A DNA stretch of 63,942 bases, counting the filler, from Dehalococcoidia bacterium (GTDB taxonomy: Bacteria > Chloroflexota > Dehalococcoidia > DSTF01 > JACRBR01): the NCBI GenBank assembly GCA_041494685.1. It is 3 parts of 3 records of this genome, joined end to end, with 100 filler letters (N's around TTAATTAATTAA, not from the genome) between each part and the next. Parts side by side here need not be neighbours in the genome. Positions count along the whole stretch, not along the records: positions 30,426 to 60,206 come from JBGQBE010000043.1; 2 more parts are not named here. One strand, written 5' to 3'. The notes under the pieces are model-generated. The model was not told where the DNA came from. It saw only the letters and a list, made by a program, of their open reading frames with translations, and searched no databases. Shown piece by piece: positions 46,885 through 55,198 of this stretch (the first letter of the stretch is position 1; each line of letters opens with the position of its first letter). Position numbers and translations under genes: made by a program.

Positions 46885-47145
46885 CTACTCGTCCTCGACG
46901 CCCAGGTCCTTCAAGTAGTCAATCGCGTCCTGGACGGTCGCGATCTTTTCGGCATCTTCGTCGGAGATCTCGAGGGCCTTGCCGTCCTTGCTGAACTCTT
47001 CCTCCATCGACATGATCAGTTCGACCAGGTCGAGCGAGTCGGCGTTCAGGTCGTCGACGAACGACGCGCTGGGCACCACCTGATCCTCCTCGACGCCGAG
47101 CTGGTCGACGATGATCTTACGTACCCGTTCGAATACAGTAGCCAC
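46885..47145 (-). CDS. acpP: Acyl carrier protein
   Basis: [24 protein letters not shown]. Confidence 0.96.
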
Positions 47146-47186
47146 AGTGTTCTCCCTCTGTACGGCCGAGCCGCTGAGTTGGTCGC

Positions 47187-47600
47187 TTACCGCGCGAGTG
47201 ACAGGCTGACCGAGCCCAGAACTCCGTTGATGAACTTCGCGGAGTTATCGCTTCCGAAGCTCTTGGCGAGTTCGACGGCCTCGTTGATGGCCGCCCGAAT
47301 AGGCGCCCCATTATTCATAAGGATCTCCCGTATCGCAAGCCGCAGGATATTGCGATCGATGGCGCTCAACTGCTCCAGCGGCCACTGACGCGCCGATCGG
47401 CGGATCAGCGCGTCTATCTCGTCGCGCTGTTCCAGCACGCCCTCGACGAGCTCGCGCGCAAACGCGCTTTGTGTTTCCGTTAGGCTCTCCTCTTCGCAGA
47501 GGCGCGCGACGGACACGAGTGGGTCGTGGTGCGAGACGTCGGCCTCATAGAGCGCTTGGAGCGCCGCGATGCGGGCCTTACGACGAGTACTAGCTGCCAT
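47187..47600 (-). CDS. nusB: Transcription antitermination factor NusB
   Basis: [37 protein letters not shown]. Confidence 0.95.
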
Positions 47601-48355
47601 CAGTACATCACCAGTCCGCCATCAACAGTCAGTATGTGTCCGGTGACGTACGCAGACTCATCAGACGCCAGGAACACCGCCGCGGGAGCGATGTCTTCCG
47701 GCTTGCCCGTGCGGCCCGCCGCCACCATGCGCATGATCTCCTCGCGCTGAGCGTCGGTGAGCCCGGAGGTCATCTCGGTGTCGATGAAGCCTGGCGCGAT
47801 GATGTTCGCCGTGATGTTCCGCGATGCGACTTCCTTGGCGATCGACTTCGTGAAGCCGATCATGCCCGCCTTCGCCGCCGCGTAGTTCGCCTGGCCCGCA
47901 TTGCCGACGATGCCCGCGACGCTGCTGATGCTGATGATCCGGCCGAACCGCTGCCGCACCATAGGCCGCACAGCGGCCTTTGTCACGTGGAATGTGCCCT
48001 TCAGGTTCGTGTCGATGACGCGGTCCCATTCGTCGTCGGACATGCGCAGGATCAGGTCGTCGGCGGTGACGCCGGCATTGTTCACGAGGATGTCGATCCG
48101 TCCGAACGCCGCGATCGTGCCCTCGACTAGCGCGCGCGCCGTGGCGGCCTCGCCGATGTCGCCGCTGATCGCGACAGCCGCGTCCGGACCGCCGCAGGCG
48201 CTGACTGCTTCCTCTGCCGCGGCGGCGTTCGTGGCGTAGTTGATCGCAACCTTCGCTCCGTGCGCGGCCAGCGCCATGCTGATGGCGCGACCGATGCCGC
48301 GGGAGCCGCCCGTGACAAGGGCCACTTTGCCGGTGAGGTCGAATAGTCTGTTCAT
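47600..48355 (-). CDS. fabG: 3-oxoacyl-ACP reductase
   Basis: TGGSRGIG, NNAG, GNAGQANYAAAK, PGFIDT. Confidence 0.93.
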   Translation of the reverse strand: MNRLFDLTGKVALVTGGSRGIGRAISMALAAHGAKVAINYATNAAAAEEAVSACGGPDAAVAISGDIGEAATARALVEGTIAAFGRIDILVNNAGVTADDLILRMSDDEWDRVIDTNLKGTFHVTKAAVRPMVRQRFGRIISISSVAGIVGNAGQANYAAAKAGMIGFTKSIAKEVASRNITANIIAPGFIDTEMTSGLTDAQREEIMRMVAAGRTGKPEDIAPAAVFLASDESAYVTGHILTVDGGLVMY

Positions 48356-49266
48356 ACCGTCAGCGATGCCACTCCGTTGATATTGCGTAGCGCCGCACCG
48401 ACTGCGATGCGCTTCGTAAGGCCAGTCAGGACCTTCCCGGGCCCGATCTCGATGAACTCGTCGACCCCCTGCGTGGCCATGTACTCGACACACTGTACCC
48501 AGCGCACCGGGTGGGTGAGTTGATACGCGAGCTCACGGCGGATTCCGTCGGGGTCCGTCATGGGGCGGGCGGAGTCGTTCGCGACGACCGGTACCCGCGG
48601 AGCAACGATCGCGGTCCCGGCGAGCGCCTCCGTCATCGGCGCGACCGCGGGCTGCATCAACGAGGTGTGGAACGCGCCGCTGACATCGAGAGGGATGGCG
48701 CGGCGCGCGCCGCGCTCCACCGCCAGCGCACAGGCGCGCTCGATGGCGTCGCGCGCGCCGCCGATCACGAGCTGCCCCGGCGAGTTGATATTGCACAGCT
48801 CGGTGCCGGCGTCGGCGCAGACGGCAGCCGCGGCCGCTTCATCCAGGCCGAGGATCGCCGCCATCGCGCCGGGCGTCGCGTCGGCGGCGGCCTGCGTCAG
48901 GCGCCCGCGCGTCTCGACGAGCCGCAGGCCATCCTCGAACGTCATCGATCCCGCCGCCGAGAGCGCCGTGTACTCGCCCAGGCTGTGGCCGGACATGAAG
49001 GCCGGGTCGCCGACGAGCGCGCCGGTGGCGCGGGCGACCGCGAGGCAGGCGAGGCTGGTGACGTAGATCGCGGGTTGGGCATTGAACGTCTTGCCGAGTT
49101 CCTCAGCGGGGCCTTCGAAGCAGAGGCGGCTGATCGGGCGGCCGAGCACCGCATCGGCGCGGTCGTAGAGGTCGCGCGCGGCGGCGTGGTCCGCGTAGAG
49201 GTCGCGGCCCATACCGGCTTCCTGCGAGCCCTGGCCCGGGAAGATCCATGCGGCGCGGTCAGACAT
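48352..49266 (-). CDS. fabD: Malonyl-CoA:ACP transacylase
   Basis: FPGQGSQ, GHSLGEY, SGAFH, EIGPGKVL. Confidence 0.95.
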   Translation of the reverse strand: MSDRAAWIFPGQGSQEAGMGRDLYADHAAARDLYDRADAVLGRPISRLCFEGPAEELGKTFNAQPAIYVTSLACLAVARATGALVGDPAFMSGHSLGEYTALSAAGSMTFEDGLRLVETRGRLTQAAADATPGAMAAILGLDEAAAAAVCADAGTELCNINSPGQLVIGGARDAIERACALAVERGARRAIPLDVSGAFHTSLMQPAVAPMTEALAGTAIVAPRVPVVANDSARPMTDPDGIRRELAYQLTHPVRWVQCVEYMATQGVDEFIEIGPGKVLTGLTKRIAVGAALRNINGVASLTV

Positions 49267-50099: not shown

Positions 50100-50307
50100 G
50101 GGCTCTCCCCCCTGGGTGGCGTAGACAGCCTATCGGGCGGGCGCGCGGCGGGTCAATTGAGTCAGGGGTTGCCGCCAAGCCGGGACGATCGCCTATAATC
50201 GCGTGAAAGCCCTGGACCGCACGCATGCCGCATCTTCCTCGAAACCGCCGCCCGCGTTTGATGCGGCAGCGCCGCTGTGGAAGTCCTGAATGGTAACAAC
50301 GCACTCA

Positions 50308-51009
50308 ATGACGCGGCTCTCCGACCTCTGGCAACTGCAGGAAACCGACTCCGCGCTCGATACGCGGCGTGCGTCGCTGGCCGACGCGGAGGCGCGACTG
50401 TGCGAGAGCGAAGAGCTGATCGCGGCGCGCGCGCGGGCCGAAGAGTTGCGCGCCGCACTCCGTGCCGCGGAGAGCACGCAGAGGGACGTCGACCTGGAGG
50501 CGGGCGAACTGCGCTCGAAGATCGCGCCGCAGGAGGCGAAGCTCTACAGCGGCACGATCAAGAACCCGAAAGAGCTGGCAGGGCTGCAGGCCGACATCGA
50601 CCAGCTCAAGCGCCACCTCGCCGCCGTGGAGGACCGCGATCTCGAAGCGATCGCAGCGGTTGAGGCGGCGGACGCCGAGTACCGTGCCGCGATCGCGGAA
50701 CTCGCCGTGATCGAAGCGGCCTGGCGCGAGGAGCAGGCGGAGCTGGCCGAGCGCGTGCAGCGGCTGGCCGGCGAGATTCTCGAATACGACGAACAGCGGC
50801 GCGACCGGACCGAGTACGTCGACGATCCCGAGCTGATCAAGATGTATGACCGGCTGCGGGTGGCTCACCAGGGGCGGGCGATGGCGAAGCTGGACCGCAA
50901 CCTCTGCCTGGGCTGCCGCATCTCGCTTCCGCTGAATCTTGTGAACAGGGCGAGGGCAGGGAGCGCGCTCGTGCAGTGCCCGAACTGCGAGCGCATCTTG
51001 CTGGCATAA
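50308..51009 (+). CDS. Coiled-coil C4 zinc-ribbon protein (DUF164/CT398-like)
   Basis: LWQLQETD, NPKEL..LQ, CLGCRISLP...CPNCERIL; TATAAT at 50194-50199. Confidence 0.88.
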   Translation: MTRLSDLWQLQETDSALDTRRASLADAEARLCESEELIAARARAEELRAALRAAESTQRDVDLEAGELRSKIAPQEAKLYSGTIKNPKELAGLQADIDQLKRHLAAVEDRDLEAIAAVEAADAEYRAAIAELAVIEAAWREEQAELAERVQRLAGEILEYDEQRRDRTEYVDDPELIKMYDRLRVAHQGRAMAKLDRNLCLGCRISLPLNLVNRARAGSALVQCPNCERILLA

Positions 51010-51011
51010 CC

Positions 51012-52421
51012 ATGAGGGCAATCGGGTACTTTCGCGAGTCGCTGGCGCGCGATCTTTCGATCGCGCAGCAGAACAAGGCGTTCTTCGAGTTCTGCGAGCG
51101 CGAGGGATACGAACCGGACATGACGTTCGTGGACAGCGCGGGCAGCAACGGCCACGCGCCGGGCTTCCGCCAGCTTCTGACGTACCTCCGCGAACACGAC
51201 AAGGGTTTCGTCGTCGTCGTCGTGCCGAGCATCGCCGGTCTCGGTGGTGACATGCGCGACGCGGCGCGCCGGTACTTCCAGCTCGAAGGCCTCGGCGCCC
51301 AGGTCGCTGCCATGAGCGGCAGCGGCGACGCGACGGCGGAGATCGTAAGCGCATGGAGCGCGCAGGACGACGGGAACAAACTCAGCGACCGCGTGCGCGC
51401 CGCCATGCGCCGCAAAGCGGTCAAGGGCGAAGTGCTGGGCCGGCCGCCCTACGGGTACAGGGTCGGCGCGCGCCACCGGCTCGAACTGATCCCGGAAGAA
51501 GCGGTGGTCGTGCGCTACATCAATCGCCTCTACTTGCAGGAGAACCTGGGCATCCGGCTCATCGCGCGCCGTCTGAACCAGGAGGGGCTCAAGACCAGGC
51601 GGGGCGGCAACTGGAGCATGGTCAGCATCCGCGACATCCTGCGCAACCGCGTCTACCTTGGCACGTACTCGCGCTTCGGGGTGAAGGTCCCCGGCAGCCA
51701 CACGCCACTGGTCTCCGCCGACGACTTCCGGCTCGTGCAGGATAGACTGAGCGCCCGCCGCACGAGCCACGCTCCGCGCATCGCGTCACCGTTCCTGCTC
51801 TCCGGCATCGCCTACTGCGCATCGTGCGGCAACAAGCTGATCGGCGTCAGCCGCAAGCAGTCCTGGAAGCGCCGGAGCGGTGAACAGGTGTCCAACTCGT
51901 ACCGGTACTACCAGTGCGAATCGCGCACGAACCAGAGCGTCTGCGGGTACCACACGCGGCGCGCCGACGACCTGGAGTCGCAGGTGCGCGTCCTGCTCGC
52001 CGGGCTGTTCGCGGACGGCCCCGGCTTTCCGCAGGGCGGCGACGGCGCCGCGGTGCTCTTCGAGCAAGCACGCGAACTCGAGCGCTCGCGAGCGCGGCTC
52101 CGTGCGATCGACCGGAAACTGGAGAGCTACGTGCAGGCGGCCGCGAAGGGCCGGCTGAGCAAGGAGCGCATGCACGTGCTCAGCGTGGTCGCCGCCGCCG
52201 ATCGGCTCTCGGTTGAAGAGACCATCGAGGCCGCCGACCGGCGCATCGGCGAGCACATGGGCGCGGCCGAGCGCACACGCATGCGCGAACGCGACGTGAC
52301 GAAGCTGCTGGACGGCTGGGACGGGCTGCCGTTTGCCGACCGGCATGCAGGCCTGCGCGCCGCGATCGCCCGTGTGACCGTGGGCGACGACGACGACGTC
52401 ACGATCACGTTGCGACCCTAA
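51012..52421 (+). CDS. Large serine recombinase-family protein with degenerate catalytic domain
   Basis: YFRES; recombinase domain PPYGY..IARRLN..W...IRDILRN.VYLG; zinc ribbon LLSGIAYCASCG..YYQC..C; coiled coil. Confidence 0.85.
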   Translation: MRAIGYFRESLARDLSIAQQNKAFFEFCEREGYEPDMTFVDSAGSNGHAPGFRQLLTYLREHDKGFVVVVVPSIAGLGGDMRDAARRYFQLEGLGAQVAAMSGSGDATAEIVSAWSAQDDGNKLSDRVRAAMRRKAVKGEVLGRPPYGYRVGARHRLELIPEEAVVVRYINRLYLQENLGIRLIARRLNQEGLKTRRGGNWSMVSIRDILRNRVYLGTYSRFGVKVPGSHTPLVSADDFRLVQDRLSARRTSHAPRIASPFLLSGIAYCASCGNKLIGVSRKQSWKRRSGEQVSNSYRYYQCESRTNQSVCGYHTRRADDLESQVRVLLAGLFADGPGFPQGGDGAAVLFEQARELERSRARLRAIDRKLESYVQAAAKGRLSKERMHVLSVVAAADRLSVEETIEAADRRIGEHMGAAERTRMRERDVTKLLDGWDGLPFADRHAGLRAAIARVTVGDDDDVTITLRP

Positions 52422-52424
52422 CGG

Positions 52425-53369
52425 ATGGCCGCGAAGAGCATCACGGCCGGTGCGGACGCGGCGCGCGCGCTCGACCTGATCGATGCATGGGCGCGCGAGC
52501 GCGGCGGCAGCGCCGAACGCGGGCCGCTGCAGAACGGCACGCGCGTGCGCCTGCAGGGCGCCGGCCGGCTTGCGGGCCTGAACGTGTACCCGTCGAAGGG
52601 CGGCGGCTGCAAAGTCGTCTTCGACCAGGCTGACGTGCCCGAGGCGGACGAGATCGCGGCGGCCCTGTCGAGCCGCCCGTCCGAGGTGAAGGCGGCGAAG
52701 AGCGCCGGCACCGAGATCGCGCCGGTGGTCGACGCGCCCTGCTGGATCGGCAGCGACGAAAGCGGCAAGGGCGACTACTTCGGGCCGCTCGTCGTTGCCG
52801 CGGTGGCGCTGACGCGCGAGAACTGGCGTGCGCTGCAGGTGCTGGGCGTCATGGACAGCAAGTCGCTGACGGACGCGCGCGCGACGTCGCTGGCAGCGGA
52901 GATCCGCGGCGCGTTTCCGAACGAAGTGATCGTCATCACCCCGAAGCGCTACAACGAACTGTGGTCCAAAATGCGCAACGTGAACCGCCTGCTGGCGTGG
53001 GCGCACGCGCGCGCGATCGAGAACGTCGCCGAGCGTGCGCCCGAGGCGACCGCGGCGGTGGCGGACCAGTTCGGCGACGAGTCGTTGATCCGCAAGGCGC
53101 TGCTGGAGCGCGGACGCGAGTTGCAACTCGTCCAGATGCCGCGGGCGGAGCGCGACCCGGCGGTAGCGGCCGCGTCGATCCTGGCGCGGGCGGAGTTCCT
53201 CCGTCGCCTCGATGCGCTGGGCCGCGAGGCGGGGATGCGGCTGCCGAAAGGCGCCTCGGCGCAGGTCGAGGCGGCCGCGCGGACGCTCGTGGCGGCGCGG
53301 GGCCGCGACGCGCTGGCCGACTTCGCGAAGCTCCACTTCCGGACGACGACGCGCGTGGCGCCGGGCTGA
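52425..53369 (+). CDS. rnhC: Ribonuclease HIII
   Basis: IGSDESGKGDYFGPLVV, DSKSL, DQF, AVAAASILAR, LPKGAS, AKLHFRT; extra N-terminal domain. Confidence 0.9.
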   Translation: MAAKSITAGADAARALDLIDAWARERGGSAERGPLQNGTRVRLQGAGRLAGLNVYPSKGGGCKVVFDQADVPEADEIAAALSSRPSEVKAAKSAGTEIAPVVDAPCWIGSDESGKGDYFGPLVVAAVALTRENWRALQVLGVMDSKSLTDARATSLAAEIRGAFPNEVIVITPKRYNELWSKMRNVNRLLAWAHARAIENVAERAPEATAAVADQFGDESLIRKALLERGRELQLVQMPRAERDPAVAAASILARAEFLRRLDALGREAGMRLPKGASAQVEAAARTLVAARGRDALADFAKLHFRTTTRVAPG

Positions 53370-53405
53370 TCTCGCCGCGTCCGGCGCCCGACACGCTATA
53401 ATCAA

Positions 53406-53766
53406 GTGCCAGCGGGCCGGGTGGCCGCTTCCGGAAACGGGAGAGGAAAGTCCGAACTCCACAGGGCAGGGTGCCGGCTAACGGCCGGGCGTTGCGAGGC
53501 GACGGAAAGTGCCACAGAGACATACCGCCCGCAAGGGTAAGGGTGAAATGGTGCGGTAAGAGCGCACCGGCGTCGTGGAAACACGGCGGCCGGGCAAACC
53601 CCACCCGGAGCAAGGCTACATAGGGGACCGTGTCCGTTTCGGCGGACTAAGGGCTGCCCGTCCGAGAGTCCCGGGTAAGCCGCTTGAGCCGCGCGGCAAC
53701 GTGCGGCCCAGATAGATGGTCACCGCGCGCAAGCGTACAGAATTCGGCTTACAGGCCCGCTGGCAC
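53406..53766 (+). ncRNA. rnpB: RNase P RNA (class A)
   Basis: GAGGAAAGTCC, GGAAAGTGCCACAGA, GGTAAGAGCGCAC, GGCAAACCCC, ACAGAATTCGGCTTA; P1 GTGCCAGCGGGCC/GGCCCGCTGGCAC; TATAAT at 53397-53402. Confidence 0.97.
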
Positions 53767-53907
53767 ACCTGAGGCCCCTTCCGCTGACAGAGCCGCGCGA
53801 CGCCGTCCTTCGGGCGGCCGTTGGTTGATCTATTGTTTTTCGGGCATTTCGCACGTTTCTGATTGATGGCGAAGCTACCGGCGGGCGCGTGGCTGATTGA
53901 TCCCGGG

Positions 53908-54242: not shown

Positions 54243-54800
54243 ATGAGAATCCTGATCGGACTGACGATTGCCTGCGCTGCGCTGTTCGCCGCGTGCGGCG
54301 GCGGCAGCAGCAACTCTTCGAAGACGCCCGCGAGCGCGGCTTCGCCATCCACGGGCGGCGTGAAGCCGTCCCAATCCGCCGCCGCGAAGCCGACGACGGC
54401 GGCCGCCGCGTCTCCGGCGGCGCTCAGCGACGGCAACGCGCCGGGCATCCCGGAGTTGAAGGGCGACATCCAGACGACGGCGTCGGGCCTCCGCTACGTC
54501 GACCAGGTGATCGGCAGCGGGGCATCGCCGAAGACCACCGACAACGTCACCGTCCACTACACGGGCTGGCTCACCAACGGGACGAAGTTCGACAGTTCGG
54601 TGGACCGCGGTCAGCCGGCGACGTTCCCGCTCAGCGGCGTGATCCCCGGCTGGACCGAAGGCCTTAGTACGATGAAGGTCGGCGGCAAGCGCCGCCTGAT
54701 CATCCCGGGCCCGCTCGCTTACGGGCCAAGCGGTCGGCCGCCGACCATCCCGGCAAACGCGACGCTGATCTTCGACGTCGAGCTGATCAAGATCAACTAG
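54243..54800 (+). CDS. FKBP-type PPIase, lipoprotein
   Basis: LFAAC lipobox; [40 protein letters not shown]. Confidence 0.92.
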
Positions 54801-54850
54801 CGCCGATGCCATTCGGATTCGGGCGCAAGAACAAGCAGAGGAGCATGAAC

Positions 54851-55198
54851 ATGGCCGATGCCATCACCACATCCAGCGGGCTGAAGTACATCGATGAGGT
54901 CGTCGGCAAAGGCGACAGCCCCACCAAGGGCAAGAAGGTCCGGGTGCACTACACCGGCCGCCTCACCGACGGCAAGAAGTTCGACAGCTCGGTCGACCGG
55001 GGCCAGCCGTTCGAGTTCATCATCGGCGTCGGCCAGGTGATCCAGGGCTGGGACGAGGGCGTGGCGACGATGAATGTCGGCGGCAAGCGCCAGCTGATCA
55101 TCCCCGCCGAACTCGGCTACGGGTCGCGCGGCGCGGGCGGCGCCATCCCGCCGAACGCGGAACTGCTCTTCGACGTCGAGCTGCTGGCGGTCGGATAG
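54851..55198 (+). CDS. FKBP-type PPIase, cytoplasmic
   Basis: VHYTGRL..GKKFDSS, VIQGW, LGYG, IPPNA.LLFDVEL; GAGGAG RBS. Confidence 0.92.
   Translation: MADAITTSSGLKYIDEVVGKGDSPTKGKKVRVHYTGRLTDGKKFDSSVDRGQPFEFIIGVGQVIQGWDEGVATMNVGGKRQLIIPAELGYGSRGAGGAIPPNAELLFDVELLAVG

Follow-up and report, generated by a model that had tools for sequence, protein, structure and literature searches.

We analysed a gene for a protein related to large serine recombinases in a stretch of DNA of 63,942 nt from a Dehalococcoidia bacterium (GCA_041494685.1). This whole stretch is called “the window” in the following, and all coordinates are positions of the whole stretch. Read head to tail on the + strand, the locus comprises a gene of the CT398/DUF164 family (“CT398-like gene”), the gene in question (“recombinase-like gene”), the gene rnhC for RNase HIII, and rnpB, which encodes the RNase P RNA (Table 1). 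The genes are tightly packed, i.e. 2 nt separate the CT398-like gene from the recombinase-like gene (51010-51011), and 3 nt separate the latter from rnhC (52422-52424), in agreement with the spacing given in a first-pass annotation of the sequence. The mechanical open reading frame (ORF) of the recombinase-like gene begins with a GTG at 50976, and its length of 469 amino acids (aa) is counted from the ATG at 51012. The first-pass annotation had proposed that the gene encodes a large serine integrase that has lost its catalytic activity and has been domesticated by its host. For comparison, we collected places with an encoded relative in species-representative genomes, and 80 of 260 such places were kept as the loci set. 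The loss of the catalytic residues, the selection on the protein, and the status of the gene as a vertically inherited, syntenic core gene together strongly support that a dead integrase has been domesticated. In its evolutionary part, the proposal passed each of the evolutionary tests that had been suggested.

The protein has the same four-part architecture and the same fold as the large serine integrases, e.g. those of A118/LI, SPbeta (SprA), Bxb1, PhiC31, and TP901-1. The four parts are a resolvase-fold domain with helix E, a recombinase domain, a zinc ribbon with an inserted coiled coil, and a C-terminal unit. Pfam models, an AlphaFold2 (AF2) model, and Foldseek searches agree on this architecture, including the DNA-binding recombinase, C4 zinc-ribbon, and coiled-coil domains that had been annotated. 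The AF2 model, which was calculated from an alignment of 79 sequences, has a mean predicted local distance difference test score (pLDDT) of 84.9 and a predicted template modelling score (pTM) of 0.55. In this model, residues 1-137 form a beta-alpha-beta domain together with helix E, residues 149-248 the helical recombinase domain, residues 267-334 the beta-rich zinc ribbon, and residues 345-413 a helical hairpin, after which a small C-terminal unit follows. Foldseek matched the model to the full-length integrases of SPbeta (9y66_A, 1.4e-21), Bxb1 (9iu2_A, 7.7e-18), A118 (4kis, 1.7e-15), and PhiC31 (9tep_A, 6.7e-14), and to the catalytic domain of TP901-1 (3bvp_B; target template modelling score 0.70, root-mean-square deviation 3.6 over 134 columns). 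The sequence identity to these solved integrases is just 13-22%. In a profile alignment, the coiled-coil and C-terminal part aligns to the equivalent regions of the A118 and SPbeta integrases.

For the catalytic residues, a profile of 21 orthologs was aligned to gamma-delta resolvase (1GDT, residues 1-144), an alignment with a weak E-value of 0.0015. The window protein starts with MRAIGYFRES, and its Y6, R8, and S10 coincide with Y6, R8, and S10 of the resolvase. Residues I74-A75-G76-L77-G78-G79-D80 lie opposite L66-D67-R68-L69-G70-R71-D72, i.e. D67, R68, and R71 are replaced by Ala, Gly, and Gly, respectively. These three residues are required for catalysis in the Tn3/gamma-delta resolvase. 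The “RP” motif is represented by A49-P50, and APGF lies opposite the RPGF of TnpX. The eroded catalytic domain of the first-pass annotation, with Ser10 retained, SIAGLGG in place of LDRLxR, and AP in place of RP, was thus recovered by the alignment.

Residue frequencies were determined for 77 full-length orthologs, i.e. the window protein and the proteins of 76 loci; two truncated copies were left out, and near-duplicates were kept. At the position of S10, Ser is present in 22 proteins, Ala in 14, Pro in 14, Thr in 9, and other residues in 18, and the replacements include Gly and Val. The retention of Ser10 is therefore true for the window protein, which together with its closest subclade has kept Y6, R8, and S10, but it is not a feature of the family at large, even though a conserved serine nucleophile is characteristic of large serine recombinases. 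Arg is found at the position of R8 in 65 of the 77 proteins. The cluster of Asp and Arg residues of large serine recombinases is missing: the equivalent of D67 is Asp in 12 proteins, and the equivalents of R68 and R71 are Arg in 2 and 11 proteins, respectively. Not a single ortholog combines S10, R68, and R71, so that the predicted shared loss of the two arginines was found. From residue 60 to residue 100, no Arg is shared by more than 55 of the 77 orthologs, and thus the notion that the catalytic arginines have merely been shifted is not supported. An exhaustive search of 50%-identity representatives yielded 163 clusters at E<=1e-30. Among the best 150 of these, the N-terminal domain could be aligned in 110, and the catalytic set is missing in 107 of them. 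The remaining three representatives, which have the catalytic set (YxRVST, DRFGR), are last in the ranking, with about 134-136 bits. As judged from these alignments, the catalytic set is gone across the family of recombinase-like proteins.

To quantify the selection on the protein, the ratios of nonsynonymous to synonymous substitution rates (dN/dS) were calculated as medians of 129 pairs with 75-97% identity, and the invariant positions of the 77 orthologs were counted. The dN/dS value is 0.15 for the whole protein and ranges from 0.06 to 0.22 for its domains, i.e. the gene is under the purifying selection expected of a domesticated gene, and the value is below 1 as had been predicted. The lowest values were obtained for the recombinase domain (dN/dS 0.06; 46 of 110 positions invariant) and the zinc ribbon (0.08; 28 of 70), the cysteines C269, C272, C302, and C311 of which are invariant. 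The values are 0.18 for helix E and the linker (13 of 35 invariant), 0.17 for the resolvase-fold core (10 of 110), and 0.22 for the coiled-coil part (3 of 144). The most constrained regions are those parts that contact DNA in integrases, and the recombinase domain, the zinc ribbon, and helix E with the linker are under very strong purifying selection. The value for the dead resolvase-fold domain shows that this domain is still under selection, and it is plausibly kept as a dimerisation module. A 41-nt block within the gene (51603-51643) is common to 71 of 73 loci. An element at the nucleotide level was considered and rejected, because a per-codon analysis revealed ordinary third-position variation; the frozen AGC serine codons result from the constraint on the protein.

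The gene is widespread and has been retained in many Chloroflexota. A word-indexed search gave 1568 matches, the best 120 of which have identities of 59-100% and nearly all a length of 452-486 aa (two entries are truncated, with 412 and 416 aa). The genome of locus L001, a complete chromosome of 3.6 Mb, contains the recombinase-like gene as its sole PF00239 match. All 48 genomes of the order of L001, filtered for a completeness of >=90%, carry the gene, as do 215 of 400 sampled genomes of the class, a count that includes an unpublished genome (G246). In the class, it is almost always the single match in the genome, with identities down to 38%. Distant, AT-rich members were found in marine Chloroflexi, and some of them are labelled merely “hypothetical protein”. 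The cultured species Tepidiforma flava (locus L078), which belongs to the class Tepidiformia in the NCBI taxonomy, also has the gene, but the Resolvase model (E<=0.001) does not recognise the N-terminal domain of its protein any more.

For 50 loci, the pairwise identities of the recombinase-like protein were compared with those of two neighbouring proteins. The Spearman correlation coefficients are 0.77 with FabD and 0.85 with the CT398-like protein, and the median identities are 0.58 for the recombinase-like protein, 0.57 for FabD, and 0.44 for the CT398-like protein. The vertical inheritance that had been predicted is thus seen, and it is accompanied by fixed synteny and a single copy, as expected for a domesticated gene. 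The reading frame is intact in the full-length copies; the one internal stop among the matches listed is a TAG in a match with 43% identity. In one metagenome-assembled genome (G403), the entire locus is present on three contigs with near identity (L003, L004, and L018), which could be due to assembly redundancy or a strain mixture and not to a true triplication. The recombinase-like gene is a single-copy, slowly evolving, syntenic core gene in its order, and it is common in the class.

The CT398-like gene is located immediately upstream of the recombinase-like gene in 79 of the 80 loci, and the 80th locus begins inside the recombinase-like gene and has no upstream sequence. The same neighbour is found in 12 of 12 distant loci, in which the protein is 37-46% identical. 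The distance between the stop of the CT398-like gene and the start of the recombinase-like gene is between -1 and +4 nt in 67 of 78 loci. Translational coupling links the recombinase-like gene to the CT398-like gene and in most cases also to an RNase H gene. Two loci are rearranged, i.e. rnpB lies upstream on the opposite strand in L019 and L070, and yceD-rpmF-fabD lie downstream in L019; in both, the CT398-like and the recombinase-like genes stay adjacent despite the rearrangement. ORFs of 660-716 aa that resembled fusions of the two genes were rejected, because a separate CT398 stop and another frame were seen in seven of the eight loci that were read, while the CT398 gene was not located in the eighth. 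Relatives of at least 822 aa were not found, which is weak evidence, and none of the 50%-identity representatives is longer than 541 aa.

The slot after the recombinase-like gene is occupied by an RNase HI-type gene in 46 and by an RNase HIII gene in 19 of the 80 loci; it contains neither of them in 13 loci, and two loci are too short. An RNase H gene is thus present in 65 of the 78 assessable loci. RNase HIII, the partner named in the first-pass annotation, is restricted to the 19 loci closest to the window. For the RNase HI-type genes, 47 ORFs were tested, and the Pfam models RVT_3/RNase_H were confirmed in 33 of them; among the NCBIfam models, that of the bifunctional RNase H/acid phosphatase (PRK07238) matches best. 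A 4-nt overlap of the RNase HI gene with the preceding stop is frequent. One type of RNase H has been replaced by the other in place, with the slot unmoved (e.g. slots L024:7413-7838 and L001:7412-8350). The slot has been refilled by an enzyme of a non-homologous type, suggesting that what is required at this place is an RNase H activity as such and not one gene in particular. On the same strand, rnpB lies no more than 2.5 kb downstream in 57 of the 80 loci, and it was undetected at the locus in 20. The window itself has the complete neighbourhood of CT398/DUF164, RNase H, and rnpB. The annotated synteny therefore holds for the DUF164-like gene, while rnh and rnpB are frequent but not constant neighbours, and the invariant partner of the recombinase-like gene is the CT398-like gene and not RNase H.

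Large serine recombinases are found at the edges of mobile elements bounded by attachment (att) sites. In contrast, the recombinase-like gene has housekeeping genes on its flanks in the 80 loci. In the window, yceD (DUF177), rpmF, and fabD are divergently oriented upstream of the CT398-like gene, and the divergent yceD-rpmF-fabD arrangement is present in 66 of the 80 loci. These genes belong to a cluster for fatty-acid synthesis and translation on the minus strand (46885-49266), which was read from ORF translations as acpP-like, nusB-like, fabG-like, fabD, rpmF, and yceD; the names of the first three were assigned by eye from the translations, unlike those of FabD, L32, and YceD. This cluster confirms the housekeeping context. 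The GC content is 0.67-0.72 across the recombinase-like gene and 0.61-0.75 around it, i.e. it is even over the region and the composition is host-like, as annotated. Flanking direct repeats that resemble att sites were not found, also in agreement with the annotation; the only matches are GC-rich ones of 60-94% identity and the repeats of FKBP paralogs (see below). There is no tRNA gene between 40000 and 63942, and the DNA contig runs unbroken across the locus. In DNA run X2, apparent “skips” were observed that have sides of 21-32 nt and are probably from other organisms.

Five genomes of the class from among those without the recombinase-like gene all have a CT398-like gene. It lies directly before RNase HI in one of them and directly before rnpB in two, whereas neither was found within the 1.5 kb fetched for the remaining two. 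A CT398 gene directly before RNase HI or rnpB is the arrangement expected before an insertion. According to the accessible part of PMC3372290, DUF164 genes are neighbours of rnhA and RNase P RNA in other phyla, and the plain arrangement of the class members without the gene matches this neighbourhood. A gene-free locus in relatives had been named as evidence against domestication. Such loci exist, but they belong to deep relatives within the class; they mark the place of insertion and do not indicate recent mobility. An ancient large serine integrase probably inserted between the CT398/DUF164-like gene and the RNase H/rnpB genes in an ancestor from which a large part of the class of these genomes descends; it then lost its mobile element and its chemistry and was retained by the host.

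In contrast to the large serine integrases, the family lacks the equivalents of D67, R68, and R71 and mostly also the serine nucleophile, and its gene is single-copy, vertically inherited, not part of a mobile element, and devoid of att repeats. It is a member of the integrase-fold family that has neither the catalytic residues nor the mobile-element context of large serine recombinases. XisF, SpoIVCA, and SprA are likewise encoded by integrase-type genes that are kept for a host purpose. These proteins still excise a DNA element and have kept their catalytic residues, whereas the recombinase-like family has lost these residues and lacks an element that could be excised. One of the best NCBIfam matches is XisF, with 51.8 bits, far under the cut-off of 375. 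In the accessible part of PMC8987985, recruited serine recombinases are given only as active invertases or excisionases. The ssrA islands of Dehalococcoides, which belongs to the same bacterial group, likewise have serine recombinase genes next to a conserved gene for a small RNA. These islands are mobile, carry cargo, and integrate at ssrA (PMC3146451, accessible part), whereas the recombinase-like gene stays in place, is free of cargo, and has degenerate catalytic residues. The upstream gene encodes the same coiled-coil hairpin and zinc ribbon as the family of CT398, HP0958 (FlgZ), and MSMEG_4306-Rv2229c. In none of the described neighbourhoods of CT398/DUF164 genes does an integrase-like gene separate the zinc-ribbon gene from RNase H. 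We found no description of a catalytically dead serine-integrase family or of this gene in the literature that was covered, most subscription journals and supplements being outside its scope.

Table 1. Features of the recombinase-like gene and of its neighbourhood in the window.
Feature	Positions	Strand	Evidence or remark
Putative operon promoter	50169-50199	+	-35-like TTGCCG 50169-50174; perfect -10 TATAAT 50194-50199; 19-nt spacer
CT398/DUF164-like gene, 239 aa	50290-51009	+	Coiled-coil hairpin PF24481, 1.8e-12; C4 zinc ribbon PF02591, 2.8e-08
Recombinase-like gene, 469 aa, ATG at 51012	51012-52421	+	PF00239, 6.2e-12; PF07508, 5.7e-19; PF13408, 2.3e-10
Resolvase-fold domain and helix E, aa 1-137, catalytic residues degenerate	51012-51422	+	PF00239; AF2 beta-alpha-beta fold
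Ser10 codon, nucleophile position	51039-51041	+	Ser in window protein
S73-I-A-G-L-G-G-D80, replacing the catalytic motif (K)LDRLGRD	51228-51251	+	Profile alignment to 1GDT
Linker and recombinase domain, aa 138-255, nearly invariant	51423-51776	+	PF07508; aligns to A118 integrase-DNA complex 4KIS
Zinc-ribbon domain, aa 256-334, four invariant Cys	51777-52013	+	PF13408
Coiled-coil hairpin and C-terminal beta unit, aa 335-469, plus stop codon	52014-52421	+	AF2 helices 345-378, 384-413
rnhC, RNase HIII, 314 aa	52425-53369	+	TIGR00716, 196.4 bits (cut-off 161.2); PF01351, 1.6e-31
-10 box TATAAT of the rnpB own promoter	53397-53402	+	Few nt before the RNA start
rnpB, RNase P RNA class A	53409-53767	+	RF00010, 287.5 bits, E 6.9e-94

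The putative operon promoter was not called by the consensus scan, which admits only spacers of 16-18 nt. A TATA[AC]T box with CTTGC or CTTGTC ahead of the CT398-like gene is present in 58 of 67 intergenic regions and is aligned across 20 close relatives. A TATACT/TATAAT-like box is located at the same position before rnpB in most of 58 aligned upstream regions (by eye, untallied). The operon leader has a length of about 90 nt (50205-50289), and a CGTCCTG-like box right after the -10 box is conserved in close relatives. A GC-rich hairpin can be formed in each of the leaders; a structured 5' leader was nevertheless rejected, as RNAalifold predicted 0 pairs for 18 leaders. An intergenic binding site of the integrase type was also considered and rejected, the conserved blocks being divergent sigma-70-type promoters and the rnpB promoter.

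The protein probably now binds DNA instead of recombining it. The functional half of the first-pass proposal, i.e. a DNA-binding or scaffold protein in a genome-maintenance module, is something that we infer. In the accessible part of a preprint (bioRxiv 10.64898/2026.07.15.738315), proteins of the CT398 family are predicted to bind to RNA polymerase, with their zinc ribbon docked on its beta' shelf/jaw and their coiled coil directed to the sigma site. If this prediction is right, a DNA-anchored, polymerase-associated module is the simplest model. The best explanation, which in our estimation has about an even chance of being correct, is that the domesticated dead integrase forms such a module together with the CT398-like protein and RNase H. 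Like an integrase on an att half-site, the protein would bind to a specific DNA site, albeit without cutting. The recombinase and zinc-ribbon domains would make the contacts, and the dimer would be formed by the resolvase-fold domain and helix E. The protein would thereby serve the CT398-like protein as the subunit that recognises DNA or provides the anchor, with the coiled-coil hairpin, which holds protein partners in active integrases, as the likely contact surface. At defined sites, the module would act on transcription or on RNA:DNA hybrids that are linked to it, and RNase H would supply the removal of hybrids that the module produces or meets. Only tentatively can one go a step further and regard the dead integrase as a non-catalytic, sequence-specific DNA-binding subunit of the transcription machinery, which anchors a polymerase-bound CT398 factor at defined chromosomal sites while the coupled RNase H of either type clears hybrids; this seems possible, but somewhat doubtful.

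Several points weigh against a DNA-anchored, polymerase-associated module. The RNase H gene is missing after the recombinase-like gene in 13 of the 80 loci, and the locus of Tepidiforma flava has neither RNase H nor rnpB within 6 kb, showing that the link to RNase H is frequent, but not obligatory. In this species, the recombinase-like gene is followed by an ORF of 290 aa without a Pfam match (L078, 7462-8334). A fusion protein of CT398 and the recombinase was not found among the matches examined. A DNA target was not found either, the conserved intergenic blocks resembling ordinary promoters, and a long dyad was not seen between 49500 and 54500, where the inverted repeats are short or weak. 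The binding of CT398 proteins to RNA polymerase is itself a structure prediction of the preprint (10.64898/2026.07.15.738315, accessible part).

The constant closeness to RNase H and rnpB would also fit a protein that binds nucleic-acid structures or RNA, e.g. R-loops for RNase H, or RNase P RNA during its folding or processing. HP0958 has been reported to bind mRNA, which is compatible with such a role. DUF164 relatives are also located near RNase P RNA and rnhA in other phyla (PMC3372290, accessible part). However, the best-conserved parts of the protein are the domains that bind duplex DNA in integrases. In addition, rnpB has its own promoter, is missing from the Tepidiforma locus, and belongs to the undetected genes in a quarter of the loci (20/80), so that we regard this possibility as rather unlikely. 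The combination of retained DNA-binding domains and lost chemistry could alternatively indicate a guard of att sites, i.e. a dead integrase that occupies old or related attachment sites and blocks the integration of active relatives. The gene adjoins a conserved RNA gene, a usual type of integration target, and active serine recombinases exist in the class: four other PF00239 matches are present in genome G003, and the ssrA islands of Dehalococcoides (PMC3146451, accessible part) are a further example. Yet a guard function leaves the universal coupling to the CT398-like gene and the RNase H slot unexplained, the gene junctions of 0-4 nt leave no room for an intergenic att remnant, and a slow, FabD-like conservation throughout the class would be unusual for a defence function. 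We therefore consider an att-site guard to be improbable.

An activity as recombinase or invertase that makes use of unconventional catalytic residues appears to be very improbable. The presence of Y6, R8, and S10 in the window protein and its closest subclade, as well as the intact fold and the selection on the resolvase domain (dN/dS 0.17), could be cited in its favour. But the nucleophile position is occupied by Ala, Pro, Gly, Val, or another residue in most orthologs, R68 and R71 are gone without a conserved Arg in their stead, there are no flanking repeats and no invertible segment, the gene order is fixed in the 80 loci, and the DNA contig is unbroken across the locus. The eroded catalytic motif would, by itself, be compatible with a functionless, decaying remnant of an old prophage or island. 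This view is already contradicted by the data on selection and prevalence, i.e. the dN/dS of 0.15 and the presence in all 48 genomes of the order, and the long invariant stretches in the recombinase and zinc-ribbon domains and the intact frames of the full-length copies, with the single TAG exception at 43% identity, also speak against it. A decaying remnant is thus extremely improbable.

Serine integrases are familiar from phages and mobile islands, and the host-kept examples that were found in print still cut DNA. A whole subfamily with more than 100 clusters at 50% identity that has lost its chemistry and is conserved as tightly as a fatty-acid synthesis gene would represent a “DNA-binding-only” integrase of natural origin. 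The family illustrates how host factors can arise from proteins of mobile elements, and it offers a starting point for explaining why CT398/DUF164, RNase H, and RNase P RNA are repeatedly linked in several phyla, for which there is no explanation so far. The family is also a possible source of programmable, non-cutting modules that bind att sites, and the presence of the gene in a cultured Tepidiforma species opens the question to bench work. If the dead integrase is indeed a subunit of the transcription machinery, it would be the first large serine integrase that has been turned into a non-catalytic DNA-binding subunit of this machinery, and a concrete functional context would be provided for the widespread, enigmatic CT398/DUF164 family, the Mycobacterium tuberculosis homologue of which has been reported to be essential (PMC5947703, accessible part).

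Two further observations concern the vicinity of the gene. In RNA run X15, contigs were found on rnpB, together with a small, low-depth piece with indels in the CT398-like gene (50596-50719); no contig lies on the recombinase-like gene or on rnhC, and the run is uninformative on the expression of the protein genes. Downstream of rnpB, the window contains two tandem paralogs of FKBP-type peptidyl-prolyl isomerases (54350-54800 and 54806-55198), which account for the DNA repeats D1-D3 with identities of 76-85%. The first paralog has a long N-terminal extension rich in Ala, Ser, and Pro, and the second is kept downstream of rnpB in many relatives.

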